A model generated the notes under the pieces. The model had not been told where the DNA came from, did not search any database, and saw only the letters and a list, made by a program, of their open reading frames with translations. Positions 4,936 to 59,600 of a stretch of DNA of 64,000 bases are shown in pieces. Both the position numbers and the translations under genes were made by a program. Position 1 is the first letter of the stretch. Each line of letters begins with the position of its first letter. The DNA is from Microcoleus sp. (GTDB lineage Bacteria; Cyanobacteriota; Cyanobacteriia; Cyanobacteriales; Microcoleaceae). The stretch covers positions 256,001 through 320,000 of the forward strand of contig JAYFMW010000028.1 in NCBI GenBank assembly GCA_042408215.1, read 5' to 3'.

Positions 4936-5706
4936 ACCCCGTCCTTTTACCTTGAAAACACCTTTAAATAATTGGGATTTTTTTTTACATCCCTCTAATT
5001 ATATTAAGGGGATTTTCACTCAAAACTCAAAAAATCCTAGCAAGTCAGTCCATGACGGACAGCCTTCCCAGGCGCACTGCATACATTGGTCTGCTGACAA
5101 TTTTTAGCTCCTCCTGTGAATCGATCAACTTTTGACAATAAATTGCCTATGGAATCTGGTGGAACTGAGATCGATCTTACCGGATTTCCAAATATTCAAG
5201 TATACTTCGGAAAATGTATATTCAGGAATCCAAGCTGCGGTTCTCATCTGCGGTCAACTCAATCTATATTTCTGATGATCTGGCAATTTTAGATCGTCAG
5301 ATGTGATCTCGATCGACCCAATACTGTGATGCAACCCCCCGCTACCGTTGACGCGCCTCTCCCCAAAATTGTGAGGCGATCGACAGTTGGAGGTGGCGAG
5401 CGCTGGCTATCACTGCTGTGGCTGCTGTGGCACCGACAGCGGTTAAATTATGCAATCAGCGCCAAAACTCGTTGTTGATGACCGCGAAAACTTTCAGGAA
5501 CAAGCCAGGGGAAAAAGTTCGATCGCCCCCCCTCATTCCTAATTCCTTGCCAAAGAAGGTCGAGTCATGTACAATATAGAGTCTGGTATCCTCACTTTTC
5601 CATAATTTTTGCCAAAATCCCGTCCCCGTAGAGGGGAAGGGACTTTCAGCGCGGATGCCGCCAGCTCACTCTATTATTCAGCAAAAAGCTAGAAATGCCG
5701 TAACTC

Positions 5707-23237: not shown

Positions 23238-23909
23238 CTACAATGATACTCCTATGCACTCCGATTCGTCAATAGTATTTTCCGGTTTGTCTTCAGCATT
23301 CACCTTTTCTTTAAGAATGGGGTCTTTATATCTACGAAGAAAATACAGGCGACTACTAAAGCAGTGCATGATTGTCATAAAATCTTGCATTAATTCCGCA
23401 GGAGGTGACAATTCTGTTTTCCCTAGAACCGTTATTTTGCAACCATTCTGGGTGCAATACCATTCGACAAAATCAAAACCAAATCGACACAAGCGATCTT
23501 TGTGAGCGATAACGATTTCAGAAACTTCGCCGCGTCCCACTCGTTCCATCAGGTTTAGAAACTTTTTCCTCTTGAAGTTCATACCAGAACCAATCTCTTG
23601 GATAGATTCACCCAGCCTGACCTTCTGAAGCGCGGCGACTTGAGTTTCTAGGTCAACCTTTTGTGAGTGGGTTGAAACCCTAGAGTAGATTACGATATGT
23701 TCATTCACCACTGTAGAACCCAGTCCAGTTAGGCTGGATTCTAAGTAGCGCCTGTGTCCACCCTTGGAGCGAATGAACTCAACTTTCCCGGCGTCAGCCC
23801 AATCCGCCAAAGTCTTAGGATGATAGCCGTATTTTTTTTGCACTTGAAATGGAGAAAGATAAGTCATTGGATTTAAGTTACTGTAGAGACTTGCTCCAAT
23901 ATACTCCAA
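23238..23909 (-). CDS. tnpA: IS607-family transposase (MerR-like HTH + serine recombinase)
   Basis: TLADWADAGK..RSKGGHRRY HTH, catalytic YSRVS, DRLCRFG, FSSRLY. The start may be 23867. Confidence 0.9.
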   Translation of the reverse strand: MEYIGASLYSNLNPMTYLSPFQVQKKYGYHPKTLADWADAGKVEFIRSKGGHRRYLESSLTGLGSTVVNEHIVIYSRVSTHSQKVDLETQVAALQKVRLGESIQEIGSGMNFKRKKFLNLMERVGRGEVSEIVIAHKDRLCRFGFDFVEWYCTQNGCKITVLGKTELSPPAELMQDFMTIMHCFSSRLYFLRRYKDPILKEKVNAEDKPENTIDESECIGVSL

Positions 23910-25968: not shown

Positions 25969-26733
25969 TTACTGCGATGCGCCTGCGGCCGCATCTAGTA
26001 ACCACCAAAGTTCGCCCTCTGGTTGAATTAGTCTGGATGGATAGGTCATTGCGTCGGCTGCGGGGGCAAAAATTTGAGCGAGTGCTGGTTGTTTGCTGGC
26101 CCCTGCAACGATGAAGATGACGCACCGGGCTTTGTTAATTAAGGGGACTGTAAAGGTGATGCGGGGTTGACCGTCTTTGTTGCCGACTGTTACCAGGGAG
26201 TCGCGCACTTGCAAGGCTTCTGTGTGCGGAAAGAGAGAGGCTGTGTGGGCGTCGTCCCCTATTCCCAATAAAATGATGTCGAAAGCAGGAAACTCGCCCT
26301 CTGATACTTGGAAAAACTGCTGCAATTCGGTTTGGTGTGCCCTGGCGTCGGCGGCTGGGTCGGCAGCGCTTGTGGGCATGGGGTGGATGTTGCTGGGGGG
26401 GATGTTTACTTGGTCAAGCCATGCGAGGCGCGCCATTTTTTGATTGCTGTCTGGGTGGTATGAGGGAACGTAGCGTTCGTCGCCCCAAAAAACGTGAATT
26501 TTGTCCCAAGGCAGGTCTTGGGCTGCGATCGCCCTGTAAAGTGGCTCTGGTGTGCTTCCGCCGGCTAAGGCGATCGTACATTGCCCCCGTGCTGCGATGG
26601 CTGTTTGGATTTGCGATCGCACAATTGACAGTGAGCGCTGTATGAGTTCTTCCTTACTTGCTAATACTTCTACTAATTTTTTCATCGAATTTGCTCTCAA
26701 CTTTTCTGGGATGTTTTTCTCAGCAATTGCCAA
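25969..26733 (-). CDS. pgl: 6-phosphogluconolactonase
   Basis: LAGGSTP, WGDERYV, LGIGDDAHTASLFP. The start may be the downstream ATG (MKKLVEV). Confidence 0.95.
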   Translation of the reverse strand: MAIAEKNIPEKLRANSMKKLVEVLASKEELIQRSLSIVRSQIQTAIAARGQCTIALAGGSTPEPLYRAIAAQDLPWDKIHVFWGDERYVPSYHPDSNQKMARLAWLDQVNIPPSNIHPMPTSAADPAADARAHQTELQQFFQVSEGEFPAFDIILLGIGDDAHTASLFPHTEALQVRDSLVTVGNKDGQPRITFTVPLINKARCVIFIVAGASKQPALAQIFAPAADAMTYPSRLIQPEGELWWLLDAAAGASQ

Positions 26734-27049
26734 CTTGAGTTTGACTGGGATGCTTTAAGGTCGATCGCCCGCGTCGCCGGAAAGGCTCAACACTTCGTTC
26801 AGTCGGATTTTATCATCCTGATGCCCGCTTGATTTGAGGAAAGCAACAGATATTTCTACCAGTGCTCGATCGAAGTTGAGATCTTGTAGATATCTGTGAG
26901 ATATGTGTTAGATATTTAATCAAAAGCTTGTGGCGAGTCGCAGTCGCATCCATCCGAGCGCTGTATGCGTAGGCCGCGAAAACAACCAAGATGATATAGT
27001 AGATTAGGAAAACTTGTTTTAAGTCCGCGCTCGCAATGACAGCAAAACT

Positions 27050-28412
27050 ATGTCAAGTTTTAACCGATTACCTACATCTATCCGCTATCTGATAGCGCGG
27101 TTGCGCTACTGGATGCAGCCTACGGTTTGGGCTACCGCTAGCAGTTTTGTGTGCGGGAGGCGTGTTTATTTGGGAGGTATCCGTAAATCCAGAAAGGTTG
27201 AACATAGATGACGAAGAGGTAGCAGCCTCAAATAGTCCAACTTCAACGGATCTTCTGTCTGCTGAAGATAGCGCAATTGCTGCTGAAATCGACACCATAC
27301 CGGTGCTAGTCAATCAGTTCAATCGCTCTAATTCAGAGTTCGGTGTGTTAAATTCATCAGTAGTTGAAGGCAAAGGTTTATTCGACGAAAATCGCGATCG
27401 AGGCTCGGAAATTCGATCGGCATCCACCGCGCCCAAGCAGGCGACAAGCAGAACACTTTTGACAGGGCCAAGTTTAGCAAATCCTGCGATCGGGACAACC
27501 AACAATAACCCGCCAAATACAAGCTGGCCAAGTTCAAACCCGACAGCAGCTTTGAGCCCCTCTGGCGACGGTGGCCAGATTTCGTCGGGGAGCAAAACCA
27601 TCGCCCCTGAGTCTGGAGGTACAGCCACAACAACCTTATCGGCTACTCTGGGTGTGAGTAATTCAGGTAAACAAAACGAAAATCCTCTGCCTTTGAGTCC
27701 GCTACAAGCAGCCATGAAAAAATACATCGCTGCTAGCACTTCGGCAACGGGGACTTCGACTCAGAAAACTGCAAGGGAGGGTCAATTGCTCGATCGACCG
27801 ACCACCACCTCGCCGGTGACAAATCAGGTCAATTTAGTCCCAACGATCGCTACAGCTCAAAATGGGGCAAATCCTGTGAATATTCCGACTACACTTCCCC
27901 CCATGACCGCACCGACAAATACTACGATTAACGACTCTCAACCAATCTTAAACCAGGGAGCAACAGTGCCTGAATCATTTCCAGGGTTAAATTTGAGAGT
28001 ACCAAACATCCCCGCAATTACTGCACAGCCTGCAACTTCGGCTTTGCCCAAAAATCCTTACCAAACTAACTTATTCGGCGACGCACCCATCGCTCAACCA
28101 GCTCCAATTCAACTGGCCACACCTTCGCCTATACCGGTAGTTCCCAATGTGGGGAAATCATCGTTTCCGAGTGCTATTGGGGGAAGCAAAATCCAGGACT
28201 CTCAATTCTCTCCCAACTCAGCGAATTCTCAATTTCAACCAGTTGAACCGAATCAGCTCAACTTACCTTCCCAGCCTAGTTTTGGAGTTGTTCCCCAAAA
28301 CACTAATCAGGGTGTGCAGTCAACTCAACCGCAGTCTTTTGCGACACCCCGTTCAATGACTCCGGGACGCTATATTGGTGGTGGCGAAATCAATACTTTT
28401 GCTAATCCTTAA
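27050..28412 (+). CDS. Membrane-anchored Pro/Thr/Asn-rich hypothetical protein (apparent frameshift near 27130)
   Basis: The 421-aa ORF ends in GRYIGGGEINTFANP. The upstream ATG 27050 frame joins it if one G at 27129-27131 is removed, giving a complete N-terminal TM segment. Confidence 0.6.
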
Positions 28413-28523
28413 ACAGCCTCTAGTATCGTCTATGCTGGTGGTGAACTTACTTAATTTCCCCTTTTTTCCCCTCGACATTCTTCAAATGTCGGGGGTTTTA
28501 TATTTTCAATCTCGCTGAAAAAA

Positions 28524-28594
28524 TGGAAACATCAGAAACATTGTGGAAACATAGAAAAATTTACTTGACGCGCCAGTGCGGGGGGTGTCAGAAT
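28524..28594 (+). promoter_or_regulatory. Candidate promoter and operator of the pPIWI-RE operon
   Basis: Three GAAACAT direct repeats (28524-28552), then TTGACG-18 bp-CAGAAT. Confidence 0.45.
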
Positions 28595-28625
28595 GGGTCA
28601 AACCTCACAAAGGGAGGAGAACCCC

Positions 28626-29945
28626 GTGAAAGTCACAAAACACCGAGACAAAATCCTTGAGGTACTGCGAGAGTGGTTTCGCATCCACAAACAGGGGCCA
28701 ACGCTGGAAGAGTTGTGTACACAACTGGCAATGCAGCCCCGTCAGAAAGCAACGGTGCAACGCTGGTTGCAGACAATGCGAGGCATCGACGTGGAATGGG
28801 AAGACAATGCTGCCCGCAGTCTCCGGCTGCTTGCCCGTGAAGTTGAAGAACCCGAACTAAAGATATCCGTAACGGAAACCTTGCGGTATCTGGCGACGGG
28901 ACTGGCAGAGTGGGAACAACGAGAACCCAGCAAGCGATCGCACATCCCAAAAGCCCTCCGCATGGGGATGTCCCGAATGTACTTAACATCTTTATTGCAA
29001 AAAGACGAACAAGTCCCCTCGAACCTCCCAGAATTTTTTGACTGGGCAACAAATCCTGTTGTTGAGTGGAAACCTGCAACAGAAATTAAACACCTTTCAA
29101 CCGATGTCACCCTCATCGAAGATGGGTCAGTTTCCCACTTTGCCGAACAGTGGCAGGTTACAGGTGGCGATGTAGAAAGACAGGTACAAGAGAAAGTCCT
29201 GCAAGATGTCCTCGAATACTGTCGGGGACACCAACTCGCAGATACTTATCGAACCTATCGGAAACTAATTATCGATCGCCCCGTCCTCCCCTACCCCGAA
29301 TACCGCCGCCTCCTGTCTTCATCCCAACTCAGACCCCTGCGCGAATTCTTGTCACAAACCTATGTCGATTTAGTCGATTTAGCAGAAGAAAACACCTATC
29401 ATCTTTGTCCTCGTTGCAAGTATTTAACGCGCCGTCGCCGAGATGGAATCCATAGCTGCCGAAACAAAAATTGCGAACAGCTAAGTGCCAAACTTCATCT
29501 CCCACCGCTGCCGCCCATTCCCAAACACGAGGCAGAAACTTGGAAAGCCGTTACCCCGGGCGTATATCGGTACGGGACAATCCCAGGAATTTGGGAAATT
29601 CAATTAGCAGAAAGTCTCACAAAATTGGGAATCCGCGTCACCCTGTGGCCGGAGATAGATGAATTTGACTTGCTGGTGGAATTTAGCAAGAAAATTCGCT
29701 GGGCGATCGATGTCAAAGATTGGGAATATTTGCATGAGGAACGCTTGCACAAAGTGGAGTACCGGCCTGATGCAACAGAAACCTTTATTGTGTTCCCTGA
29801 CGAGCGAGAAGACAAACTGCGGATTAAAGTGGTACGCCAACAACTCGAACCAGAATTAGGTGGCGTGCGCTTAATGCTGATTAGCGAAATCATCTCCCAG
29901 GCTGAAAAAATTATGGAGGATAGAAACCGTGCGCGATCTTGCTAA
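28626..29945 (+). CDS. pPIWI-RE system restriction-endonuclease-fold nuclease with an N-terminal LexA-like wHTH and a Zn ribbon
   Basis: C-terminal LWPEIDEFDL..WAIDVKDW (PD-(D/E)xK), CPRC..C....C, and an N-terminus resembling the LexA DBD. The GTG start at 28626 follows GGGAGGAG. Confidence 0.8.
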   Translation: MKVTKHRDKILEVLREWFRIHKQGPTLEELCTQLAMQPRQKATVQRWLQTMRGIDVEWEDNAARSLRLLAREVEEPELKISVTETLRYLATGLAEWEQREPSKRSHIPKALRMGMSRMYLTSLLQKDEQVPSNLPEFFDWATNPVVEWKPATEIKHLSTDVTLIEDGSVSHFAEQWQVTGGDVERQVQEKVLQDVLEYCRGHQLADTYRTYRKLIIDRPVLPYPEYRRLLSSSQLRPLREFLSQTYVDLVDLAEENTYHLCPRCKYLTRRRRDGIHSCRNKNCEQLSAKLHLPPLPPIPKHEAETWKAVTPGVYRYGTIPGIWEIQLAESLTKLGIRVTLWPEIDEFDLLVEFSKKIRWAIDVKDWEYLHEERLHKVEYRPDATETFIVFPDEREDKLRIKVVRQQLEPELGGVRLMLISEIISQAEKIMEDRNRARSC

Positions 29946-32900
29946 ATGGAGTAAACAATTGCGGGAATCACTCCGCAATTCTGAGGACTTAAAAGCTTAT
30001 GCGGCTTCTAGCCTTTCCGACACTGATGCCAAGGTAAAGCATCGAGAAATTGTCCGTCTTGCCCAACTGATTGCCGAAGTGGAATTAGGGCTAACACTGC
30101 TGAGGGAAATAGCTCCTGAAGAACCTGCTGCCTCAGTCTCAGCTTTACTTTCGGGATATCGGTTTCCGGTTGAAGCACTCTTAAATGATGCTAACTGGCT
30201 GCTGGTAAAAAAAGCCCGTTTTTATCTCCTGCGGCGCAAAGGGAATCAATGGGAGCGATCGCTCTGCGAATATATCAGCATTCCTGAAATTTTGAGAATA
30301 TTCAGCTTAACAGACATCAGCGAAGTACCTGAATTAATTCCCTCAAGTACATACCCCCGCCGCTTGCAGCTATACCAGCAAACCCTATCAGCAACCCCGC
30401 AGCACAAAAAACGAAAAACCCAACTGGCAACTCCTGGGTATTGGTATGCCAAAATTGCCCACAAAGGTAACTCTCCCGCTGAGGTTCCTGTCAATATTCC
30501 CCAAGCTGTTGCTAATCTTGCACCCGCGCCGCAGGTATCTTTTCACCGCACGCGCACTCAGAACAATCCCTCTCATACCGTCACCCTAGAAGAGTTGCTG
30601 ATTTCAGCCCAGGAAATGGATTGTAAGCTGGCTGAATCGGGCTACGACCCAGAAAACTATCACAGTCGCCTTCAAGGAATTGCCTTGCGGTTATACGACG
30701 CATCAACCGATGATTTTTCCCCCGGTAGCGAACTGAAACTAGAGCAACTTGTCCACATAGTCGGTTTATTAAACGTTGGTAAATCCACACTGTTAGAAGT
30801 TCTGATTTACCATTTGGCCTCACAGGGATATCGCTGTGGCTTAATTGTTAATGATGTTGTTGCACAAGTGCGCCTCGCATCCTTGTTTTGGCACGGAATG
30901 GGGATTTCAGCGGCTCCCGTACTGGGAACCAATCGCTCTGAACAATTGGAAAAAATTTACGAACCCATCCTCGCAACAATGGGCGAGGAAATTGCACAAG
31001 GAGCCATTCATCCCGCGTGGCGCTGGTTTAGTTTTGTTTGTCCCTTATTAGCGTTAGTACAGTCAGAAGATAAGTGGGAATTTGGCGCGGAACCCTGTCA
31101 CAATCTTTACCAAAAAGTGACCGCCAACCAAAAAGAAAAAGCAATAGACAGTGAAGACTTAGAGGATTGGGAAGAAAGCGATACAGAAGATAAATATACC
31201 TGTCCTTTTTATTATAAGTGTCCGCGCCACCAACTAGAACGAGACATCGCTCAATCTTTGGTGTGGGTGCTAACAACCGCCAGCTTTATTCATACCCGCG
31301 TTCCCCGTCAGGTATTGGACGAAAATCTTACTTTTGCTGAAGCTGTTTACCGCGAATGCGACTTTCTGTTTGTTGACGAAGCTGACCGGGTACAGGTGCA
31401 ATTTGACGAAGCTTTTGCACCGGATGAAGTGTTAGTCGATGCTTCGGGAAACTCATTATTAAATAAACTCGGAATTAAATTTGCCACTGCTATTTACAAT
31501 TCCGATCGCCGCAGCATGGCTGCTGAATTAGTTGCAGCAGCAAAAAAAGCGCACGACAACGCTCAAAGTGCTGCTGACATCATCCTTCCCAAGCTGCACA
31601 ACCAATCCGAACTCGTTGAATGGTTGGGTTCAACTCCCTTCACGGGCCGTTCTGTATTTGCCCGCATTATCCGCGACATCCTAGAACCTCCACCGGAGAC
31701 AGAAAATAGCGAACCCAAAACTAAACTTACCCGCAAAGAACGCAGTCAGCAGCGGCGGAACCGGATTGAGGCCGGTTTGCCACCTTTCGAGGAACGCCAG
31801 CGCCGCAAACAGGTTATGCAGACAATAGAGAATTTTTTGCAAGCACCTCTCAACCGCCGTCAAGGAGGAGAACTTTCAGATATTGCCCATACCTTGTTGA
31901 GTGCAGAAAGCGAGACTTTGGCATTAGCTGAAGTAGCTAATTGGCTAAAGAGGTGGCTTGAATCTTTGGGAATTTCTATGGCCGATCAAACTAAGTTTGG
32001 TGAAGTCTCGCGCCACTTGTACTTTGCAGTTCTCGTGGCTGTGCTGACTAATCGGTTAGCTTTTTTGGTTGACCATTTGACCGCCTTAATGGGAACGCGC
32101 GTTATTGATTTGCACGACACCAGTCTTTCCCTAGTGTATCGCCCGCCTCGCGACTATCTGCCGGTGCTGCCATCTGCACCTGTGGGGAATATTTTGGGCT
32201 TCAAATATACGCCGGATCGCAGCAGCAGAGGTGGCAAATTGGAGTATTTTCGCTACGTTGGAGTTGGTCGCGATTTACTCCTGAATTTCCCCACTATTTT
32301 TGCTGTTGACGGTTGGGACGGCCCTCATACTGTGCTGATTTCAGGCACTAGCTACGCTCCGGGTGCTCCCGCTTATCACATTCGGAAAAGACCTACAGTA
32401 TTGTTAGAACCTGCCTCTAATAATCACAAAGCTGGCGATGCTGGAATTGGCGAAAGTGAGTTTTTCTTCACACCGCAGCAGAACGCTGTTGGAAATTACA
32501 TCGCTCTATCGGGACTGCCTCCTGCGGCACGGAAAAAAGCAGTAAAGGAGATGGTTGAGGCTGTCTGTAACAGACCAGGACAAGCTAAGAGCTTTCTCGA
32601 TCGCCTATTTGAGACTTTAACAGATAAAGGACAGCAAGACCAGCAGCGTTGGGGCGATCGCAAACGCCTTTTACTGATCGTTAACAGCTACGACGAAGCT
32701 GCACAGGTTGAGTCAGTTTTGAAACCAATTTACCGCGTTGAAAATATTGACGGAATTAAAGTTCTCCGCCGCGACAATGCTCCTGCTGACTTAAGCGGGA
32801 TTCGCCGGGGTAAAATTCGGGATTTAAACAAACTTCCCACTGAGATTGTAATTGCACCTTTAATGGCTCTAGAACGCGGTCACAATATCCTCAACGATCA

Positions 32901-33465
32901 CCGGATAGCAGCATTTGGATCGGCAGTATTTTTGAGCCGACCGATGCCAGTCCCCGATGACTGGCAAACCACTGTCCAGCAACTCAATAATTGGGCGCTG
33001 GAAAATTGCTTGAATTTCACTTTGTACGAGCCAATTCAGCGGCGAGGCGACACTCTAACCCTGGCAAATGTTCACAGTGAATTTTACAGGTATGCAATAG
33101 ACAAGATGCTCGATTTGAACTGTCGGGCGATGTCTTTCAAACAGTTGACTGATGATGAACGCTCTGTACTTTGTTGGACTCAGTTAGTGAGTATCTGGCA
33201 AATCATCGGGCGTTTGGTGCGGGGCGGCGTTCCTTGCATTGTTCATTTCCTAGATCTCAAATTCGCGCCGAAATCAGCCGAAGGGGAAGCCGACAGCGTT
33301 GTTACCTCACTTTTGGCGGGAATTATCAAAGAACTTCAAGACTCGGTTGAGGGCGAAGGAAAACGACCCTGTGACAGCACCCTCGCGCGATCGCTCTACG
33401 GAGCTTTCTTAAACTCACTCAAAAAAACAAAGAAAGAAACAAAGGAATTACGCTATGACATTTAA
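29929..33465 (+). CDS. pPIWI-RE system DinG-like SF2 helicase
   Basis: Walker A GLLNVGKST, Cys cluster CPL..PC..CPFYYKC, Walker B VDEAD, SGTS, ERGHNIL and motif VI QIIGRLVRG. It overlaps both neighbouring genes. Confidence 0.85.
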   Translation: MRDLAKWSKQLRESLRNSEDLKAYAASSLSDTDAKVKHREIVRLAQLIAEVELGLTLLREIAPEEPAASVSALLSGYRFPVEALLNDANWLLVKKARFYLLRRKGNQWERSLCEYISIPEILRIFSLTDISEVPELIPSSTYPRRLQLYQQTLSATPQHKKRKTQLATPGYWYAKIAHKGNSPAEVPVNIPQAVANLAPAPQVSFHRTRTQNNPSHTVTLEELLISAQEMDCKLAESGYDPENYHSRLQGIALRLYDASTDDFSPGSELKLEQLVHIVGLLNVGKSTLLEVLIYHLASQGYRCGLIVNDVVAQVRLASLFWHGMGISAAPVLGTNRSEQLEKIYEPILATMGEEIAQGAIHPAWRWFSFVCPLLALVQSEDKWEFGAEPCHNLYQKVTANQKEKAIDSEDLEDWEESDTEDKYTCPFYYKCPRHQLERDIAQSLVWVLTTASFIHTRVPRQVLDENLTFAEAVYRECDFLFVDEADRVQVQFDEAFAPDEVLVDASGNSLLNKLGIKFATAIYNSDRRSMAAELVAAAKKAHDNAQSAADIILPKLHNQSELVEWLGSTPFTGRSVFARIIRDILEPPPETENSEPKTKLTRKERSQQRRNRIEAGLPPFEERQRRKQVMQTIENFLQAPLNRRQGGELSDIAHTLLSAESETLALAEVANWLKRWLESLGISMADQTKFGEVSRHLYFAVLVAVLTNRLAFLVDHLTALMGTRVIDLHDTSLSLVYRPPRDYLPVLPSAPVGNILGFKYTPDRSSRGGKLEYFRYVGVGRDLLLNFPTIFAVDGWDGPHTVLISGTSYAPGAPAYHIRKRPTVLLEPASNNHKAGDAGIGESEFFFTPQQNAVGNYIALSGLPPAARKKAVKEMVEAVCNRPGQAKSFLDRLFETLTDKGQQDQQRWGDRKRLLLIVNSYDEAAQVESVLKPIYRVENIDGIKVLRRDNAPADLSGIRRGKIRDLNKLPTEIVIAPLMALERGHNILNDHRIAAFGSAVFLSRPMPVPDDWQTTVQQLNNWALENCLNFTLYEPIQRRGDTLTLANVHSEFYRYAIDKMLDLNCRAMSFKQLTDDERSVLCWTQLVSIWQIIGRLVRGGVPCIVHFLDLKFAPKSAEGEADSVVTSLLAGIIKELQDSVEGEGKRPCDSTLARSLYGAFLNSLKKTKKETKELRYDI

Positions 33466-36250
33466 TACCATTCTCCCTGGAGCCTGGGAATTGACTGAGG
33501 ACTTGGAATACAATCTCTTTTCCTTAATTGTTCCTACTGCATGGCAGCAAGTTGCTAAATCTCTGGCACAAAAGCGCGTCAGACTGCGTGGCAAAGGTTA
33601 TCCGTCTGTGCCCGTGTACTCGCTCGATCGCATCATAGCGGCCAGCTTCCCGAACATTATCCAGACGGTGCGTTATGGCTGGCAGCATCCGGGTGTAACT
33701 TGGCTGTTTGCAACAGAAAAGGCTGACCTTTCTGATTTGTCAGAATTCATCAAAGATTGGCTTCGAGAAGAATTTAGCGAGGCTTTGGGAGAGTCGGAAG
33801 TCGAGTCTAGTCTCGAAAATCTAGATAATCAAGCTTGGCATTGGGAAGACCCTAAAAGTTATTCTCTGCTGCGCCAGCCCGAAAATTCCTACGATGATAT
33901 CCGCTTCCAAGCAATTCCCGATTACCTAGCTGTTGAATTTCTCAAAAATCCTCAAGTCTGCTTTGGTGAAAACAATCTGTATGAACTAACCTTCTACCGA
34001 GTTGTCAGCCTCAATCAGGGTGCTGAACTGATGTCGTGGCCTCCCCATCCGGTGTCGCTGATTCAGAAAAACGAAGAAGTCGGTGCAGCAAATATTTCAT
34101 TTGTCATCCGTTTTAAGCTGCAAACAGTTCCTTGGCGCCGGGAACCGATTATTTACCACCAACTTTCTATTCGGCGGTGGATTGTGGAACCTCTAAAGCG
34201 TCTGCCGTACCGAGGAGCCACTGCCTTTATTGGCGATAATCACCGGTGGTTAGATGGTGTGCGACAACCCTTCTGTTTTATGCCTTTGGCTGTGAAAAAA
34301 CGTTCTGGTGGAGAACTACTGTGGCCTAAAGCGATCGGTGGATTACTTCTCAGCAATGACTCCCGACTTCCCGACCCAAAAGAGTTAGTTAAACAGCCAA
34401 AATATAATTGGTCTGCGTTTGGTCAAGAACCGGAGGGAATACAAATAGCCATTGCTTACGACACTCGGCATCCGGGCGATGTACCTTGTTTTCCCGGTGT
34501 CAGTCCGCTGGATTTAGCAAGTATCGATCGGGCAATTCAAAATAAGATCGAGCAATCTAATTTCCCTATTAAACGAGTGGGTGAAGCTACAAGGATAAAA
34601 TCCACGAACAAGAAAGGGAGAAAGAACAAAGGGCTAAAAAATTTTTGGGAACTAACCGGAGCGCCGAAAACACCGATGCTGCGAGCCGAAATTGCTGCAC
34701 CTGCTGTATTTCGTTCCGCCGAAAATCCTTTGCATACAATACTTATCCTCTGGGAAACCAAACAATGTCGAGATGCACTCATTTCAGAAATCTGTAAGTT
34801 ACTTTCTTTATCACCAAAAGGGGAGGCTCAGATTTATGAAACTTCTAAGGGAGCCAAAGGGGAAGAGATACTTTATGAAAGTCCTCACGGTTCTGTGCGA
34901 ATCAAAACTCAGCACGTCGAAGACTTGACGCAAAGACTCGATTTGGATAGTTCATCAGTCAAAGCTAACAGTCGCCAAAAACAGCGAGTTCATCTCATCG
35001 AAGAGCGCGTTAAACTGATTGTTTCATCCCTGCCAAAAGCGGAAGAAATCAGCGGTGCTTTAATTGAAATCAAGCCTAAAAAACAATTTTTCCCGCCGGA
35101 GTCAGATCCTAAGTTAGCATTAAGAATTGGGGCAATGAAGGCTGGCTATGTCAATCAACACATTCACGCAGTGACAGCTCAAAATAAAAAGGGTGAAGAA
35201 TATAACATTAAAAATTCTCCCAATCGAGTACAAAAAGCTGTATCGGATTTATGGCGACAATTCGGGATTCTGCCTGCTCCGATAATTGACCCAGAAAAGG
35301 ATGGCATCGATCCGAATTTGTGGCTGACTTGCTTCCAAGTTTTGCGCCGAACTCGCAAAACAACGGCTAGCAATACCCCTGCTAATGTTGCATTAATGGT
35401 GCGAGTTAATCCAGTCGCAGGAATCGTACAAGTTACCATTCCTTCTTTATTCCCGAAATGGGTATCGTATCCAGTCGGACTTGAATACCTGATCGGTGAA
35501 AAATGGGACTCGGATTCCTATGTTGATGAAATCACGGGTGATAGCGACGAACAACAGCAGTCTAGCGACAAAAAACGCGAACAGCAGTTTCTTAATAAAT
35601 TTGTAGCTGACTGTTTGAGAGATTGCCTAAATACCCCCATAGAAAAGGATAAACTACCCCGCCTACTATTTCTAGCAGAAGCGCAAAATGCCCGAAAAAT
35701 CCTGACGTGGCTGCAAAACCCCAAACTACCGGCCAACACTTTACCAGATGAACTGCAACGGCAATTGACAGAATCAGAACGAAATCGTCTGTGGGTTGTG
35801 CGGTTGCGAGTTGTAGTTAGCGGTGAAGTTCCTGTTTGTATTATCAAGGGTTTTCCTGGTAGCAGAACCAGCGGTTTATTCTTTTGGGATGGTGTGTGCG
35901 ATCGCCCAGAAAATGCGCTTTATCTAAGCATGAGGAAGAACTTAACTACTGAACAGGACTTATTACGTCGGTTAGAGTCTCGGCTCGATAATGGCAGCAG
36001 ACAAGCTGGAAACCCCAAACCTTTAGAGATAGCCGTTGTTAATTCCCCAGGAATTGAGGGCAGCAAATTAGCTTGTTTCGTCCACAATCTTAGAGACCGC
36101 TGGCCGTATTTTGCGGATGAAGTTTCTCTGCCGTTCCCCTTTCCCTTTGCCACTTTAGCCAAAGAGTATGCGGTGAGTGCCAAAGATATTGTGGAATTAG
36201 AGGACTCAGAGGAATCTGAGGAGTCAGAAGAATTAGAAGACTCAGACTAA
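33455..36250 (+). CDS. pPIWI-RE protein (divergent PIWI/MID module; DUF3962/DUF3893-like)
   Basis: AELMSWPP and SIRRW N-terminal motifs; DPKLALRIG..Q (MID-like); AQNAR, VRLR, LEI and LPFP..LAKEY (PIWI RNase H-like); third gene of the nuclease-helicase-PIWI triad. Confidence 0.82.
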   Translation: MTFNTILPGAWELTEDLEYNLFSLIVPTAWQQVAKSLAQKRVRLRGKGYPSVPVYSLDRIIAASFPNIIQTVRYGWQHPGVTWLFATEKADLSDLSEFIKDWLREEFSEALGESEVESSLENLDNQAWHWEDPKSYSLLRQPENSYDDIRFQAIPDYLAVEFLKNPQVCFGENNLYELTFYRVVSLNQGAELMSWPPHPVSLIQKNEEVGAANISFVIRFKLQTVPWRREPIIYHQLSIRRWIVEPLKRLPYRGATAFIGDNHRWLDGVRQPFCFMPLAVKKRSGGELLWPKAIGGLLLSNDSRLPDPKELVKQPKYNWSAFGQEPEGIQIAIAYDTRHPGDVPCFPGVSPLDLASIDRAIQNKIEQSNFPIKRVGEATRIKSTNKKGRKNKGLKNFWELTGAPKTPMLRAEIAAPAVFRSAENPLHTILILWETKQCRDALISEICKLLSLSPKGEAQIYETSKGAKGEEILYESPHGSVRIKTQHVEDLTQRLDLDSSSVKANSRQKQRVHLIEERVKLIVSSLPKAEEISGALIEIKPKKQFFPPESDPKLALRIGAMKAGYVNQHIHAVTAQNKKGEEYNIKNSPNRVQKAVSDLWRQFGILPAPIIDPEKDGIDPNLWLTCFQVLRRTRKTTASNTPANVALMVRVNPVAGIVQVTIPSLFPKWVSYPVGLEYLIGEKWDSDSYVDEITGDSDEQQQSSDKKREQQFLNKFVADCLRDCLNTPIEKDKLPRLLFLAEAQNARKILTWLQNPKLPANTLPDELQRQLTESERNRLWVVRLRVVVSGEVPVCIIKGFPGSRTSGLFFWDGVCDRPENALYLSMRKNLTTEQDLLRRLESRLDNGSRQAGNPKPLEIAVVNSPGIEGSKLACFVHNLRDRWPYFADEVSLPFPFPFATLAKEYAVSAKDIVELEDSEESEESEELEDSD

Positions 36251-36264
36251 TATCTGTTAATTTA

Positions 36265-37431
36265 CTAGCGAGAAGCGGCCCGCGTTAATAACAATCCCCC
36301 GATGCCAAAGCCAAAAACTATCGGCAGCCAAGCCGAAATCATCGGACTCAAAACAGCTTTGACGCCCATAGAACTGGTGATAAAACCAAATACATAGTAA
36401 GTGAAAATCACAACTACGCTAATGCCGAAACTCGTGCCTCTACCGGAGCGGCGTGGTTTAGTTCCCAAAGCTGCTCCTACTAAACCAAATACCATGCACA
36501 CGAAAGGAAAAGCATATTTTTCTTGAATTCGCACCTTGAGTTTGCGAATTTGTTGCTCGTCGCCGCTGTTTTTAATTATTTCCAAACGTTCTAAAGCTTG
36601 TGCAATATTCATTTCCTTGAAATCCCGTACTCTCGCTGCTAAATCTAAGGGTGTACGGGGGAGTTGCAACTGTTGGTGTTCAAATCTAACTATGTTGCGG
36701 TAAGAGCCGTCAGGAGCGACTATGTAAGCAGTTCCGTTGAAAAAATCCCAGGTATTTTCTGAGGGATTCCAGGTAGCTGATTCTGAGGAAACGATTTGAT
36801 TGAGGCCTGGGGTGGAGCGATCGATAATTGTTAAACCTTTCATACGCTGGCCATCAAACTGTTCTGCATAAAACCAGCGTGCTAGGATTTCCTCGCCGCC
36901 TTTTTCAGGTTTGCTAAATTCTGTATAGATGATATTTCTCTCTTGAAATTGCGGTTTTTCTCGCTTCAGGGCTCTGTCTAAAGTCAGAGTAGCCCGGTAA
37001 CTGGCGGCGGGTACAACTAACTCTTGCAAAGCGAAGGTGCAGCCGGTAACAACCAAACTCAGAATGACTGCGGGTAGTATTAGCCGATAAATGCTAACCC
37101 CGCAACTGCGGAGGGCTATGAGTTCGCTGTCGCTGGACATTCGGCTGTAAGCCATGAGGGTTGCTAGCAGCATTGACATGGGGAAAGCTAATACTACAAA
37201 GTAGGGAATTTGTAGCAGAAAAATTTCTAGGGCGGCGCCGTAGGGGAGGCCTGATTCTGTGACTCTGCGTATTAATTCAAATAAGGCTCCAACTGTGACG
37301 GCGACGGATGTAAATAGTCCAACGCCAAATAGAAATGGGCCGATTAGTTCTTTGGTAATGTACCAATCCATTACGGAAATTCTCGGCAGCCAGTTGATGG
37401 GATTGAAAGATTTGGACATTGCTATTTTCAT
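36265..37431 (-). CDS. LptF/LptG (YjgP/YjgQ) family LPS export permease
   Basis: Multi-TM protein with SSDSELIALRSCGVS; downstream of lptB. Confidence 0.9.
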   Translation of the reverse strand: MKIAMSKSFNPINWLPRISVMDWYITKELIGPFLFGVGLFTSVAVTVGALFELIRRVTESGLPYGAALEIFLLQIPYFVVLAFPMSMLLATLMAYSRMSSDSELIALRSCGVSIYRLILPAVILSLVVTGCTFALQELVVPAASYRATLTLDRALKREKPQFQERNIIYTEFSKPEKGGEEILARWFYAEQFDGQRMKGLTIIDRSTPGLNQIVSSESATWNPSENTWDFFNGTAYIVAPDGSYRNIVRFEHQQLQLPRTPLDLAARVRDFKEMNIAQALERLEIIKNSGDEQQIRKLKVRIQEKYAFPFVCMVFGLVGAALGTKPRRSGRGTSFGISVVVIFTYYVFGFITSSMGVKAVLSPMISAWLPIVFGFGIGGLLLTRAASR

Positions 37432-37497
37432 ACTTGCGCGCGATCGCAGATTGCTCCTTAAGCTAAAATCTAAATTTTATCATCTCAAATTGACTAA

Positions 37498-38244
37498 CTA
37501 GCGCACGAAGCTGTCGCCTAAGTAATACTGGCGTACTAAAGGGTTGCTGTAGAGTTCTTCTTCAGCCCCTGATGCTAAAATTTGGCCGTCTCGCATGATG
37601 TAGGCTCGATCGGTAATTTCGAGGGTTTCTCGGACGTTGTGATCGGTGATTAAGATACCAATTTTCCGATCGCGCAGTTTAGCAATAATTGTTTGAATTT
37701 CGTCTACGGCGATCGGATCTACCCCTGCAAATGGTTCATCTAAAAATAGGAACATCGGCCCGTCTCGCCCAGCAGCTAAAGCTCTCGCTAATTCTGTGCG
37801 TCGCCTTTCCCCTCCTGAAATTTGAATTCCCAAACTCGATGCAATTTTTTCTAAGCGAAATTCTTGCAGCAAGAAATCGACTCGATCGCGCCATTCCCAA
37901 CGGGGCACTTGAGTTTGTTCTAACACTACCAAAATGTTGTCGCGCACAGTCATGTTGCGGAAAATGCTGGCTTCTTGAGCGAGATAGCCTATTCCCAAAT
38001 GTGCTCGCTCGTGCATCGGCAATCGAGTGATGTCTAAATCGTTGAGCCAAACAGTGCCTTGATTGGGTTTTTCTAATCCCGTGGCGATGTAAAATGTTGT
38101 GGTTTTGCCTGCACCATTCGGGCCGAGCAATCCTACGATTTCTCCTTGTGCTACCGAAAGGTTGACGCGACTAACTACATTGCGCTTTCCGTAGGATTTG
38201 TGAATATTTTCGAGTACAATTTTCACCGTCGAGGCAACCTCCAC
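37498..38244 (-). CDS. lptB: LPS export ABC transporter ATP-binding protein
   Basis: GPNGAGKT, SGGERRR, LDEPFAGVDP, ITDHNVRE, YYLG. Confidence 0.95.
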   Translation of the reverse strand: MEVASTVKIVLENIHKSYGKRNVVSRVNLSVAQGEIVGLLGPNGAGKTTTFYIATGLEKPNQGTVWLNDLDITRLPMHERAHLGIGYLAQEASIFRNMTVRDNILVVLEQTQVPRWEWRDRVDFLLQEFRLEKIASSLGIQISGGERRRTELARALAAGRDGPMFLFLDEPFAGVDPIAVDEIQTIIAKLRDRKIGILITDHNVRETLEITDRAYIMRDGQILASGAEEELYSNPLVRQYYLGDSFVR

Positions 38245-38295
38245 AAGTTAAACTTCAGACTTCAGGTTTTAAGGAATGTCGTTTATAGTCGAGTC

Positions 38296-38797
38296 CCGAT
38301 CCCCCTAAATCCCCCTTAATAAGGGGGACTTTGACTGCTCCTAAATCCCCCCCTTCTTAAGGCAGGGCTGTTTCATTCTCAAACAAATCATCGTTTTGTA
38401 GGGGTAGTGCGACCCCTACTCCCCGTGCCTACCCTCCTCATCCACGATTTTGTAGGTGTTTCAGGCATCAGGGCAACCACGGGGGGATTGCCCCTACAAG
38501 AGAATGAAACAGCCCTGCTTCTTAAGGGGGACTTTGACTGCTCTTGTCCCCCCTTAATAAGGGGGACTTTGACTGCTCCTAAATCCCCCTTAATAAGGGG
38601 GACTTTGACTGCTCTTGTCCCCCCTTAATAAGGGGGACTTTGACTGCTCCTAAATCCCCCTTAATCAGGGGGACTTTGACTGCTCCTAAATCCCCCTTAA
38701 TAAGGGGGACTTTGACTGCTCCTAAATCCCCCTTAATCAGGGGGACTTTGACTGCTCCTAAATCCCCCCCTTCTTAAGGGGGGTTAGGGGGGATCTC
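38296..38797. repeat. Tandem ~36-bp hairpin repeats (CTAAATCCCCCTTAATAAGGGGGACTTTGACTGCTC)
   Basis: Near-identical units with no unique spacers, interrupted by a MITE. Confidence 0.9.
38363..38517. mobile_element. 155-bp MITE with 18-bp TIRs and a 10-bp target duplication
   Basis: TIR CAGGGCTGTTTCATTCTC / GAGAATGAAACAGCCCTG; CTTCTTAAGG duplicated at 38353-38362 and 38518-38527. Confidence 0.9.
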
Positions 38798-53723: not shown

Positions 53724-56606
53724 ATGAGCATTGAAGAATATATTCGGCAAGCCCAGGTTTATTTGAACCGGGGAAAGTTAACAGAGGCGATCGATTTTTG
53801 CAAAAGGGCGATCGAACTTCAGCCGTTTTCGCCCTCGGCTTACACGACTTTGGGCGAAATCCTAGAAGCTCAAGGCGATCCGACGGCGGCGAGAGATGCT
53901 TTTGTGCAAGCTTTGGAAATTTCGCCGCGGTTTTTTCTGGCTCACGCTTATTTGGGTCAATTATATAGCGAGTATTGGTGGCTGGATGAGGCGGTTTTTC
54001 ACTACCGGAAAGCTCTGGATTTGAAACCAGACTGGGCGGAATTGCATTATAACTTGGGAAATGTTGTTCATAAACAGGGAAATTTGTTGGGGGCGATCGA
54101 GTGTTATCGAAAGGCGATCGCTCTTAAGCCCGATTATGTACTTGCTTTCTACAATCTGGCTGTGGTTTTAGATGAAAATAATCAGCTCGAAGCTGCAATT
54201 GATAACTACCGACAGGTAATTGCTCTCAAGCCTGATTATGTGGAAGCTTACAGTAATTTGGGCTGCACTTTGGTAAAGGACGATCGCATCCCAGAGGCGA
54301 TCGAAATTTACCAGGCTGGGCTCGCGATTAAATCTGATTGGGCGACGCTTTATAATAATTTGGCTCAGGTGTTGCTTGATAAAAGTCCCGAAAAGGCGAT
54401 CGCGGCTTACCAAAGAGCGATCGAGTTAGAGCCGGATTTGGTTTTGGCTCATTACAATCTGGGGAAAGCATGGCAAATACAGGGAGAACATTCTGCCGCT
54501 GTTGTTTGTTTCGATCGCGTGGTTGAGCTCCATCCTGACTATATTTCGGGCTATACAGACGCAGGCTTTTCTCTGATGGCTTTGGGTAAAATTGCGGAAG
54601 CACTGCCCTATTTTGCCAAAGCAATTGCTGTCAAGCCCGATTTTGTTGAGGCTTACTGCGATTTGGGAGAAACGCAGCCATTTGCTCAAGATGATGATGA
54701 GTTTTCAAAGGCGATCGCAGCTTGTGGTAGATTTTTGCAAGCACTAACTGGAAGGAAGAAGGAAGAGGGAAGTTCGGCAACGGATTCTGTAACGGATTTA
54801 ACGGATGTCAGGAAGTTCGGCAACGGATTCTGTAACGGATTTAACGGATTTAAACGGATTCCCAATTCCCAAGTCCCGATGTCCGATGCCCGATGCCCAA
54901 TGCCCAATGCCCAATTACCAATTGCTGAAATTTGCGATAACTTAGCAGCAATTTACCTGCATTTGGGGAATGCTTTAACAGAGTATGGCGGCCACGAATC
55001 GGCGACAGCTTATTATCAAAAAGCTTTGCAAATTCAGCCTAAAAATACAGAGCTTTACTGGCGATTGGGCAATTCTTTGGTAGAGCAAAAGCGGTTAAAT
55101 GCGGCAATCTTAGTATACCACATGGCTTTGGCAATTCTACCTGCTCTACCGCAAGTTTATTTTGACTTAGCAAAAGTGCTGGAAAAACAGGGCAGTTTGG
55201 AACGGGCGATCGATTATTATCAAAAGGTTTTAGAGTTGCAATTCCACGGGTATACACAACCGCAACTGTCGAAAAAAGCTAATTGTATTCTACTAGAATC
55301 AAGTAAGTTTGAAGTACCTAAAGGCATTTATTTATCCACTTGGGATTGGATTGTTGCTGCTAAGTTAAAAAGTGATAATTATTTAGAAATCGTTTGGAAA
55401 TATGAGACGGAAACCCAACCAGAAAATATTCCCAATGCCCAATGCCCAATGCCCAATGCCCAATTCCCAATGCCCAATTCCCAATTGGCAAATTCCGATT
55501 GTGGTGGTTTAACTTGTGGGCTGTGTTTGCAGCGGATTTCTAAGTGGTTCGATCCGGTGCATTTGGGTTGGGGAGTTTGCCGTTTGTCCAATTCTAAGCC
55601 ACTACCCGTGGAGTCGCAGAAGACTTTTGCTGCTACAATTCCCAATGGGCGAGTTTGGATTGTGCCGCAACAAAATTATTGGCTGATTTGTAAGGCGATC
55701 GCTGTTATTACTCCCGATAACTATTTGTTGGCTGATGTGTCTAGAGATTATCCGGGGTTTTTACCGGTCTGTGAAAAGCATGATATCAGAAAACATAGCG
55801 TTTTTGACTTAGAATCATTTCCTCCTTTAAAGCAGATTGAAGGTAGGGTGGCGGTGCTTTCTGGTTTGTCGGGAAATGTCTATTTTCACTGGATGGTTGA
55901 TGTTTTGCCGAGAATTGAATTGCTGCGGCGAAGTGGTAGGGATTTGGCGGAGATTGACTGGTTTTTGGTGAATAGTTGCCAGCATCAATTTCAGCGGGAA
56001 AGTCTGAGGATTTTGGGGATTCCAGAGGAGAAAGTCTTGGAGAGCGATCGCTATCCTCACCTTCAAGCAACAGAGTTAATTGTACCGTCTTTTGCTGGAT
56101 ATTTGGGCTGGCCTTCTGGATGGGCGATCGATTTTTTGAGGCGGGAGTTTCTTCAGGGAATTATACCTAGTTATAGCTATCCAAAACGGATTTATATCAG
56201 TCGCAGCAAAGCTAGATATCGGCGAGTTTTGAATGAGGCAGATGTGGTTGAGGTATTGGAGGGATTTGGCTTTGTTTCTATTTTACCTGAATCCATGTCT
56301 TTGGAGGAGCAAATTGCCTATTTTTATCATGCTGAGGTAATAGTTACTGCCCACGGTAGCGGGTTGACAAATACGATTTTCTGTCAGGCTGGAACTAAAA
56401 TAATTGAGTTAATGTCACCTCATTATATTAGCCATTATTATTGGGGAAGTAGTCAATATTTGCAGTTGGAACATTACTTTTTAACTGGCGAGGCTTTTGA
56501 ATGCTATCCTATTAGACAGTTGATGTATCAGAATTCGCTGACAGAGGATATTTTGGTGAACTTGAGTTCGCTAAAACGGATGGTTGAAGTGGTTGGTTTG
56601 AGTTAG
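53724..56606 (+). CDS. TPR-repeat protein with a C-terminal glycosyltransferase family 61 (DUF563) domain
   Basis: Many TPRs; [29 protein letters not shown]. Confidence 0.87.
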
Positions 56607-56630
56607 TTAGCGTCTGGAGTAGTTGGAATT

Positions 56631-59600
56631 ATGCCCTCGATTGAGAAGATGGAAAAAGCAGCGGTTGATTTGAGTCAGCAAGCAGAAATTTATTTAGCTG
56701 AAGGTAGGTTAAATGAGGCTGTGGCTGCTTGTGAGTCAGCGCTGAAAATTGAGCCGAATTGGGCGGCACCTTGTCAGACGCTGGGAAAAGTGATGCAGCT
56801 TCGAGGTGAAATCGAGCCAGCTAAGCAGTGGTATGAAGCGGCGATCGATCGCAATCCAAATTTACCGGAAGTTTACGCGAATCTCGGCAGTTTGTATTCT
56901 CATTCTAAACAGTGGGAAAAGGCGATCGCGGCTTGTGAAAAGGCAATTTCGCTCGCACCGAAATTTGCTGCTGCTTATCGCCAGTTGGCGAGAGTTTGGA
57001 TGCAGTTGGAGAAGCCAGAAGCAGCCACAGAGTGTTGGTATCAAGCTTTTCAGATCGAGCCGAATTGGGCAACGGCTGACGAGCACGTCACTCTGGGAAA
57101 TAGTCTTGTTGAAGAAGGCAAGTTCGATCGGGCGATCGAGTGTTATTCGCGGGCGATCGAGTTCAACCCGAATTTGGCAATAGCTTATCATAATTTGGGG
57201 GAAATGCTGCTCGGTGAAAAACGGTGGCAAGAGGCGATCGCAAATTATGAAAAAGCTATTGAAATCAATCCCAATTTTTTTGAATCTTACCACAGTTTGG
57301 GTAAAACTTGGGCGGATAGAGGAGAATTAGATAAGGCGATCGCCTGTCAACGCAAAAGCCTCGAAATCAATCCAAATTATGCTCGTGCTTACCTGAGTTT
57401 GGGCAATGTTTTGGTGCAAAAGGGCGAGTTTGATGCAGCAATTAACTGTTACCATCAGGCTCTTGAAAATAACGGCAATTCCGCTTGGGCGCATAATTAT
57501 TTAGGGGAAGCTTTTGCTCAACAATCTCGGTGGCAAGAATCTGTGATTTGCTACCGCAAGGCGATCGAATTAAATCCAAATCTTCCTTGGTTTTACCTCA
57601 ATTTGGGAATTGCCTTAACTTGCGAAAAATCCTGGGATCAAGCGGTTGCCGCTTACCTGCGTGCGATTCAGCTTGAGCCGAATTTGACGGGAATTAATCA
57701 GAGGTTGGGATATGTTTTGCGTCAGCGCAGCGCATCGGGTTTAGATAGCACAATTATTAGTTATTGTCAAGATATTGAGATGCTTGCTAGCGGCAAAATT
57801 TACCACAAATTGCTGGGAATTGAGTTAGATGGAGCGGACTTTTATATAAATTTAGGAAATAGTTTAGCGAAACAGAAGCAGTTGGAAGGTGCGATCGTCT
57901 TTTATAGCATGGCGCTGCAAATTGAGCCAAATGCTGCGGAAGTTGTCGCCAAACTCAATGAAGTTTCGACGAAACAACAGGAGTTATACGCACAAATTGC
58001 CTGTTACCGTCGCCAAATTGCGATCGCCCCGAATGATTCTCAAGCGTACAACGATTTAGGAAATATTTTACCGCAATTAGGCGAATTAGACGAAGCAATT
58101 GCCTGTCACCAAAAAGCGAGCGAATTGAGAAGTTGGGTTGAATGTGCGGCGAAAGATTATCAATTTACGCAAGATTGGTTTACCCACAATATCCCTATTT
58201 GGAAACGGCATTTGCAGCAGTTTGCAGGAATGCCAGAATTTCAAGTTGTGGAAATCGGCAGTTTTCAAGGAATGTCGGCTTGCTGGCTGTTGGATAATAT
58301 TTTAACTCACCCCACAGCAAAAATTACTTGTATTGATTTGTATTTCCAAGAACATTTTAAGGGCAATATTGCGAAAACTGGGGTAGGGGATAAAGTAATT
58401 GAATTAGAAGGCTATTCTCAAGACTTATTAGTTAATTTGAATTCCGAATATTACGATATTGCTTACGTTGACGGCTGTCACAAACCCACCAGTGCTCTGC
58501 AAGATGCGATTTTGTCTTGGAGGTTGGTGAAAGTTGGCGGATTGATGATTTTTGACGATTATGAATTTACGTTTCCCGACAGCCCGGAGCAAGATACTAA
58601 AATCGGCATCAATGTCTTCTTGGAGATGTTTGCAAGTCAGTTAGAAGTTGTTCATAAAGGCTATCAACTGATTGCGAAAAAAATCGGCAATCAAAACTTG
58701 GGAGAAGAGCAAGCTCTACTTTCTCAAGGTTGGGAAAAGTTGGGGGATATTGCGGCAAATACGGGTTATTCGGATGAGGCGATCGCCCGCTATCAAACAG
58801 CCATTAAAATTAAGTCTGGCAATTACTTAACTTACCATAAGTTGGGTAAAAGTTTCCAAGAAAAAGAACTGTTTGATGAAGCTGCGGCCGCTTACAAACA
58901 GGCGATCGAACTTAACCCTAATTTTAGTTGGTCTTACCACTTTTTGGGGGAAACTTGGCAAGCAATCAACGAAAATAGTGAAGCTGCGATTGCTTACCGC
59001 AAAGCGATTGCATTAAATCCCGATTTTTGTTGGAGTTATAGCAATTTAGGCGATGTGTTGATGGAGCTTGTTGAGTTGGAGGAAGCTGTTGTTGCTTACC
59101 GCAGATTAATTGAGCTGAATCCAGATTTTTGTTGGTCTTATGATAGGCTGGGTAAGGCTTTGATTGCAGTGAAAAACTGGGAAGAAGCGGCGGCTGCTTA
59201 CCGCAAAGCTATTGAATTAAATCCCGATGATTGTTGGCTGTACAATAGTTTGGGAGAAGTGCTGGAATCCCAAGAAAATTGGGCGGAAGCAGCAGTTGCT
59301 TTTGGCTGTGCTGTTGAGCTAGAGCCAGAGCATAGTTGGCTGTACAAAAAGTTGGGTGATGCTCTGCGAAAACAAGGAGAATTGTCAAGGGCGATCGCAA
59401 TTTATGAAAAAGGCATAAATCTGGAGCCAAAATCCTGTTGGTGTTACGAAGGATTGGGTTTGAGTTTAATGGCAAAACAGCAGTGGGAACCGGCAATAAC
59501 TAATTTAATTCAAGCACTGCAAATTAAACCCGATTTGTTTGGAATTTACTATCATATAGCTTATGCTCTGGAACAAAAAGGAGAAGTGGATGAAGCCGAT

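Follow-up and report, generated by a model that had tools for sequence, protein, structure and literature searches.

The pPIWI-RE triad of Microcoleus sp.

The pPIWI-RE family, which corresponds to the Ppr models of PADLOC and to type III of the prokaryotic Argonautes (pAgos), was defined in 2013 by Burroughs, Iyer, and Aravind, in whose account part of the family is non-slicing and a LexA-type domain is listed as one of four N-terminal helix-turn-helix (HTH) fusions, with autoregulation or target specificity offered as their roles (PMC3702460). The family member PsPIWI-RE of Pseudomonas stutzeri is described as slicing via D525 and D610 (PMC10991935). In the DdmDE system, a non-slicing Argonaute, directed to its target by a short guide, places a DinG-like helicase-nuclease on the strand that has been displaced, and plasmids are cleared (10.1101/2024.05.10.593530). 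We describe here a pPIWI-RE operon found in a 64,000-nt stretch of Microcoleus sp. DNA (contig JAYFMW010000028.1 of assembly GCA_042408215.1, positions 256,001 to 320,000), referred to below as the window, and a predicted operator through which its nuclease probably regulates the operon. One more pPIWI-RE copy adds little in itself; the added value lies in the operator. A search of the literature, in which subscription papers were mostly beyond reach, found neither a test of a whole pPIWI-RE triad nor, in print, a GAAACAT operator of the kind presented below for this family.

The operon consists of three stop-free, co-oriented open reading frames (ORFs) on the plus strand at window positions 28626–29945, 29929–33465, and 33455–36250, which encode a nuclease of 439 amino acids (AA; from a GTG start), a helicase of 1178 AA, and a PIWI protein of 931 AA. 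The coordinates bear out the overlaps of 17 and 11 nt that a preliminary description, made from the letters alone, had given for these three long ORFs. All six Pfam domains of the pPIWI-RE island were matched above cut-off, and PADLOC assigned the ORFs to PprRE, PprDinG, and PprPIWI. The gene order REase, DinG, pPIWI-RE with overlapping termini is that of the pPIWI-RE triad, and the locus agrees with the 2013 account also in the domains Y, Zn ribbon, REase, Z, DinG, X, MID, and RNase H (PMC3702460). The three genes are an intact canonical pPIWI-RE triad, and the family assignment made earlier is upheld by Pfam, PADLOC, and the Argonaute fold considered below.

The first ORF (28626–29945, plus strand) is predicted to encode a LexA-like winged HTH (AA 1 to ~68) followed by domain Y, a Zn ribbon, and a PD-(D/E)xK nuclease, as judged from Pfam (PF18156, 7e-17; PF18154, 8e-25), PADLOC (PprRE), and a structural model, in which residues 1–54 match HTH folds and residues 320–430 match PD-(D/E)xK nucleases. 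Its N-terminal fusion is of the LexA type listed in PMC3702460. The Zn ribbon and the nuclease reported previously were recovered in full, with C261/C264/C278/C283 and E324...D348...D362-x-K364 invariant in 35/35 nuclease homologues. We consider the GTG at 28626, which is preceded by AGGGAGGA, to be the better start, because a ribosome-binding site (28611–28618, plus strand) precedes it and most homologues begin there; an alternative, longer ATG start at 28593 falls inside the predicted -10 region. LexA_DNA_bind (PF01726) matched 8 of 15 aligned nuclease N-termini (best 2.6e-6), and weak PDB matches of the N-terminus were to LexA and TetR. No peptidase family was matched in the nuclease by Pfam; the HTH leads into domain Y and the nuclease, unlike in the LexA repressor of the SOS response. 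A search of the whole genome, rated 99.98% complete, with PF01726 found no host LexA.

The second ORF (29929–33465, plus strand) encodes a DinG/XPD-like superfamily 2 (SF2) helicase with domain Z and four conserved cysteines, as assigned from PF18155 (2e-21), PADLOC PprDinG (9e-148), and motifs. Walker A (G279/G284/K285), Walker B (D483/E484), and C371/C390/C425/C431 are invariant in 51/51 helicases and motif VI is kept in 48 of them, which confirms the SF2 motifs described before. The four cysteines are predicted to hold an iron-sulfur (Fe-S) cluster.

Candidate operator and probable autoregulation

The sole promoter-like site in 28400–28700 is a predicted sigma-70-type promoter on the plus strand (28565–28594), with TTGACG, an 18-nt spacer, and the extended -10 element TG-n-CAGAAT. 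Its TTGAC, -11 A, and -7 T columns are conserved in 22–25 of 26 non-redundant loci, and the first position of the extended -10 element was never T in these loci, as read from ungapped columns, which spacer variants blur. At 28524–28561 of the same strand lies a candidate operator of four direct GAAACAT-type repeats starting at 28526, 28535, 28546, and, in degenerate form, 28554 (spacing 9, 11, and 8), which places it at approximately -75 to -41 from the predicted start site. The repeats end just before TTGAC and their spacing to the -35 element is fixed. Both the N-terminal HTH and the array were absent from the preliminary description. A TGAC...GTCA arrangement across the promoter was also considered as a palindromic operator and rejected; its right arm varies as an extended -10 element would.

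Results showed that the array accompanies the LexA-like domain. It is present in 40/40 clade loci with upstream DNA (37 with scores of at least 43.6, and three longer variants with 17.6–26.3) and in 0/43 nuclease loci without an N-terminal LexA-like domain, where the best score was 2.2. The clade was assigned from a quick tree, and the counts leave out L063 (contig starts in the gene), L103 and L125 (partial), L040 (other HTH type), and the duplicates L019 and L046; L096 and L106 were treated separately. Four held-out plasmid copies all carry the array, 101–102 bp before the start codon. In the 7.36-Mb host genome the site is single (score 58.1; next 22.9), and a pattern scan of 401 genomes returned five matches, four at clade operons and one inside an unrelated coding frame. 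The longer variants (L065, L078, and L084) have an extra or re-spaced repeat, and in L078 and L084 the nuclease frames are also split. Upstream of one array-bearing operon (L072:1240-2385) lies a divergent gene for a Cro-type HTH with an IrrE-like metallopeptidase, possibly a second layer of control.

Nucleases with other N-termini have sites of their own. In the MerR-like class, labelled by inspection as no Pfam match was obtained, a palindrome of the TTACA-N8-TGTAA type is found in the promoter spacer of 12/13 loci (L141–L153, 20–60 bp before the start codon), with a variant in the thirteenth, and none of these 13 loci has GAAACWT; for the relatives in this class only the nuclease genes were examined. 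The palindrome is a candidate operator. A second, divergent pPIWI-RE triad with a MerR-like nuclease N-terminus was observed in the same genome (L140, G000:C29:125314-133609), its PIWI gene split near C29:132790 by a frameshift that is either real or an assembly error. Two distant LexA-like nucleases, L096 (~4975–5025) and L106 (~520–550), have their own inverted-repeat cluster just before the start, and the L106 repeat unit contains GGAAAC, like the array of the window. The MerR-class and distant LexA-like sites appear to give more independent support for autoregulation than the clade count does.

We therefore favour autoregulation, because different N-terminal domains go with different sites, and hold it probable, from comparison of these sequences, that the nuclease regulates its operon via the four direct repeats at its own promoter. 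The result bears on the 2013 question whether the fused HTH regulates the operon or aims the nuclease, and favours the first of the two roles named there. While the nuclease-HTH fusion itself was already noted in 2013, the predicted operator appears to be new: no operator is described in the text of PMC3702460 that was consulted, whereas in the present loci the LexA-like domain goes together with a four-repeat site and the MerR-like domain with a palindrome. The prediction marks which 38 bp to mutate for changed expression. Several points weigh against it. The 40 array loci form one clade, in which the array and the domain may have arisen together just once; only L082, L083, and L085, close relatives lacking both and of tentative placement in the tree, break this kinship. 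The motif was built from 26 clade loci, with the four plasmid copies as the sole held-out test. In addition, the nuclease of the window itself falls below the PF01726 cut-off (E 0.13), and Fur scores 0.013.

We also weighed a different origin of the array, as a host transcription factor site, a recombination arm site, or an element end, with the HTH aiming the nuclease at target sequences, which we regard as improbable. Homology with copies at other genomic sites starts at 28519–28521, just before the array and ~105 bp before the start codon, as an arm site or element end would have it. Among viruses there were nine array matches, all low-scoring, eight of them within or next to coding frames in unrelated viruses; the ninth, in a prophage (L129), is a triple repeat that resembles the array, lies next to an integrase-like frame, and suits the same reading. 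A viral operator mimic is unsupported by these matches. Sequence specificity is, in turn, the other role offered in PMC3702460. A host regulon is hard to reconcile with the single array site per genome, and the fixed spacing to -35 counts against this alternative in general. In none of 19 loci was a mirror array found in the 300 bp that follow the PIWI stop, and an integrase was found in 0/50 flanking ORFs and in one of the four plasmid loci, which leaves an element end or integrase arm site unsupported. As for targeting by the HTH, the host genome has 885 occurrences of GAAACAT vs. 1030 expected, a mild avoidance at most if it were a restriction site, and no cognate methylase is present among the three cassette genes or their neighbours.

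Returning to autoregulation, the sign of the predicted control can be read in two ways. LexA-family proteins are repressors, and LexA binding to direct repeats is known in alphaproteobacteria; the former speaks against activation, as does the finding that the operators of the other nuclease classes overlap the promoter core or start. In the window the array lies wholly upstream of the -35 element, the -10 element is non-consensus, and the strong repeats are distal and the weak one proximal. This layout resembles that of type II restriction-modification (R-M) systems with C proteins or C-REase fusions, in which a DNA-binding domain is likewise fused to a nuclease, paired operators end at the -35 element of the own promoter, the left one activating and the right one, at -35, repressing, and fusions are described as active in both roles (PMC2175313, PMC3850674). 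Unlike in those systems, the domain here is LexA-like, the boxes are direct repeats, and there is no methylase. Activation from the distal conserved repeats with repression from the weak proximal one has, in our estimate, a nearly even chance, and pure repression is only slightly less likely. Tentatively, the nuclease might be its own activator and repressor, with a peptidase-less LexA-like domain acting on tandem repeats upstream of a weak promoter, so that expression would be delayed after transfer and later capped; HTH domains would have been captured several times, each with its own operator. If this is true, the predicted operators are switches by which a pPIWI-RE system could be turned on in its native host.

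The PIWI protein and possible modes of action

The third ORF (33455–36250, plus strand) encodes the pPIWI-RE protein with X, MID, and RNase H domains, assigned from PF13111, PF18157, and PF13032, structural matches, and a residue survey. When its predicted model (predicted local distance difference test, pLDDT, 77.5; predicted template modelling score, pTM, 0.77) was compared with 48,161 chains, the top 24 matches were all Ago/Piwi proteins, most of them aligned over the full length, the best being CpAgo (Z 13.0; root-mean-square deviation, rmsd, 7.7; 563 residues aligned), Drosophila Piwi (Z 13.0), and HrAgo1 (Z 12.9). According to the model, the third protein has a full-length Argonaute fold, in line with the MID/PIWI fold expected of it in the preliminary description. 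Neither the three proteins nor the PIWI profile had a significant sequence match among solved structures. In the stretch that separates the X and MID regions (34400–34900, AA ~360–420) we observed a hypervariable, lysine-rich loop of low model confidence, with an identity of 0.82–0.87 even to a strain 95–99% identical elsewhere and with mosaic variants among homologues.

Residues were surveyed in a profile alignment of 150 PIWI proteins, that is, the window protein and representatives, the best of 1293 matches, with slicing members outside the sample. The MID residues D551, K553, R557, Q568, R591, and R601 are kept and near-invariant, from which it seems likely that the protein binds guides. 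The slicer position of Argonautes, with its G-x-D pattern, ends the first RNase H strand; set here by the motif and the predicted strand E622–632, it holds Q628, with W in 132/148 proteins and D in none, and no Asp was found at 627–629 in any of the 150 rows. R783 and E858 are present here and in 146/150 and 145/150 aligned proteins, respectively, and we infer from their spacing that they are the conserved R and E of the 2013 paper (PMC3702460), whose non-slicing form the window protein shares. A similar spacing is seen for R639/E718 of PsPIWI-RE, which belongs to the same family and gene triad; unlike in that protein, with its D525 and D610, a Gln stands at the inferred first position (PMC10991935). 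The PIWI protein very probably does not slice, judging from these residues, with two reservations: the slicer position was mapped without the active P. stutzeri protein as a reference, and the second slicer position is acidic (E742).

With modest confidence we read the locus as an intact mobile pPIWI-RE cassette, in which the Argonaute-fold protein would bind short guides without cutting, recognise foreign DNA, and load the helicase on it, the separate nuclease would then cut this DNA, and the same nuclease would bind the four repeats at its own promoter and so regulate the operon. By analogy with DdmDE, a targeted degradation of plasmid or phage DNA is somewhat favoured as its function. Both systems have a non-slicing Argonaute (predicted here), a DinG/XPD-like helicase, and a PD-(D/E)xK nuclease, with structural matches of the PIWI model to DdmE (Z 9.5) and of the nuclease model to DdmD (Z 7.8, rmsd 5.7, 190 aligned). 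Unlike in DdmDE, described as two genes with the nuclease fused to the helicase C-terminus and a helicase lacking an Fe-S cluster (10.1101/2024.05.10.593530), the nuclease here is encoded on its own, by the first gene, and carries an HTH, and four cysteines are retained in the helicase. The triad may work like DdmDE but is no DdmDE member. Three observations count against this reading: the match to DdmD falls in a range that common folds also reach, the flanking genes are housekeeping genes and form no defence island, and, in the account of PMC10991935, the phenotype of the family's only knockout concerned ciprofloxacin and not defence.

That phenotype, an approximately 15-fold lower ciprofloxacin survival with filamentation, would fit genome maintenance, in which the triad would remove R-loops or stalled forks when replication is under stress; we think this very unlikely for the window, where the site is empty in 47/60 genus genomes, the cassette is also on plasmids and was recently transferred, and the protein, unlike the slicer of P. 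stutzeri, is predicted not to slice. The guide-free R-loop restriction proposed in section 6 of PMC3702460, by which the PIWI module detects RNA-DNA hybrids that belong to invaders in transcription or replication, which the helicase then unwinds before the nuclease cuts, is unlikely in our view, if less so. PsPIWI-RE is described as active solely on RNA/DNA hybrids, and no Rfam family or guide-source locus was found in 26500–38500; yet the residues of the 5′-end MID pocket are near-invariant, which fits short loaded guides, and PsPIWI-RE binds 21-nt guides at 20–150 nM (PMC10991935). Lastly, target recognition could free the nuclease as a non-specific toxin, by which the infected cell is killed or arrested, with tight self-regulation to contain toxicity. 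Non-slicing long-B and short pAgos act in this way (PMC11333966), the nuclease model also resembles the nuclease domains of Card1/Can2/Cdn1, and several pPIWI-RE loci carry broken frames; a directional helicase partner, to judge from DdmDE, would suit processive target degradation better than collateral cutting, and such abortive infection appears rather improbable.

Mobility and neighbourhood of the cassette

The cassette lies between a 421-AA ORF without a Pfam match and lptF/G, lptB, and lptA on the minus strand, and its GC content is that of the surroundings. In 47 of 60 genus genomes these flanking genes stand together without the operon, in one case with 97–99% identity in the flanks; three genomes have the operon at this site, and the remaining 10 are uninformative, partial, or carry it elsewhere. 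Compared with six more distant same-site copies, divergence at four-fold sites is 0.09–0.20 in the operon and 0.26–0.46 in the flanking genes, and identity steps sharply at the operon 5′ edge. Because silent-site divergence is 2–3 times lower in the operon than in its flanks, sequence comparison indicates that the cassette passed from one lineage to another at this site, and homologous replacement is the probable route. The system had been called functional and long-resident: the former is plausible from the open frames and intact nuclease and helicase motifs, and the latter is contradicted by the empty sites and the divergence values. The HIP1 sites cited for long residence are present, but five GCGATCGC sites vs. 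5.3 expected, with a genome median of 5 per 7625 bp, make their density merely average, which points just to a history inside HIP1-bearing cyanobacteria.

Microcoleaceae and other filamentous cyanobacteria provide the closest named relatives. Four plasmids carry the cassette, one of them conjugative, and the neighbours of copies at other sites are unrelated to each other. Including its promoter the cassette forms a self-contained unit of 7.7 kb that passes from one cyanobacterial species to another, which may be of consequence when plasmids are transferred into filamentous cyanobacteria. At the same intergenic site, L031 and L032 (genomes G047 and G050) have other insertions of ~2.1 and 1.7 kb, and in G045 (L020:11954-12250) the last 294 bp of a PIWI gene with a broken frame lie beside lptF/G, a remnant of a lost same-site copy.

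Upstream of the array, a hairpin followed by a T run resembles an intrinsic terminator (28469–28495, plus strand; -16.8 kcal/mol, z -4.8, 0/200 shuffles as good). It is present in same-site copies and in none at other sites, and likely insulates the operon from the upstream gene. Contigs from 4 metatranscriptome runs of 3 studies, among 22 runs listed, cover most of the operon with 90–99% likeness and have 5′ ends at 28543, 28587, 28612, and 28670; as they show neither strand, start, nor level and may hold DNA, we did not count them as evidence of expression.

Elsewhere in the window, three large tetratricopeptide repeat (TPR) proteins with glycosyltransferase 61, methyltransferase, or sulfotransferase domains are encoded at 53724–62511, a region with no defence-system match of note. 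Positions 27800–28412 have a 100% identical second copy at a contig start of the same genome (G000:C23:1-613), which is a duplication or an assembly artefact. The ORF at 23238–23909 has a resolvase domain and a MerR-like N-terminal stretch, and is presumably a transposase of the IS607 family.

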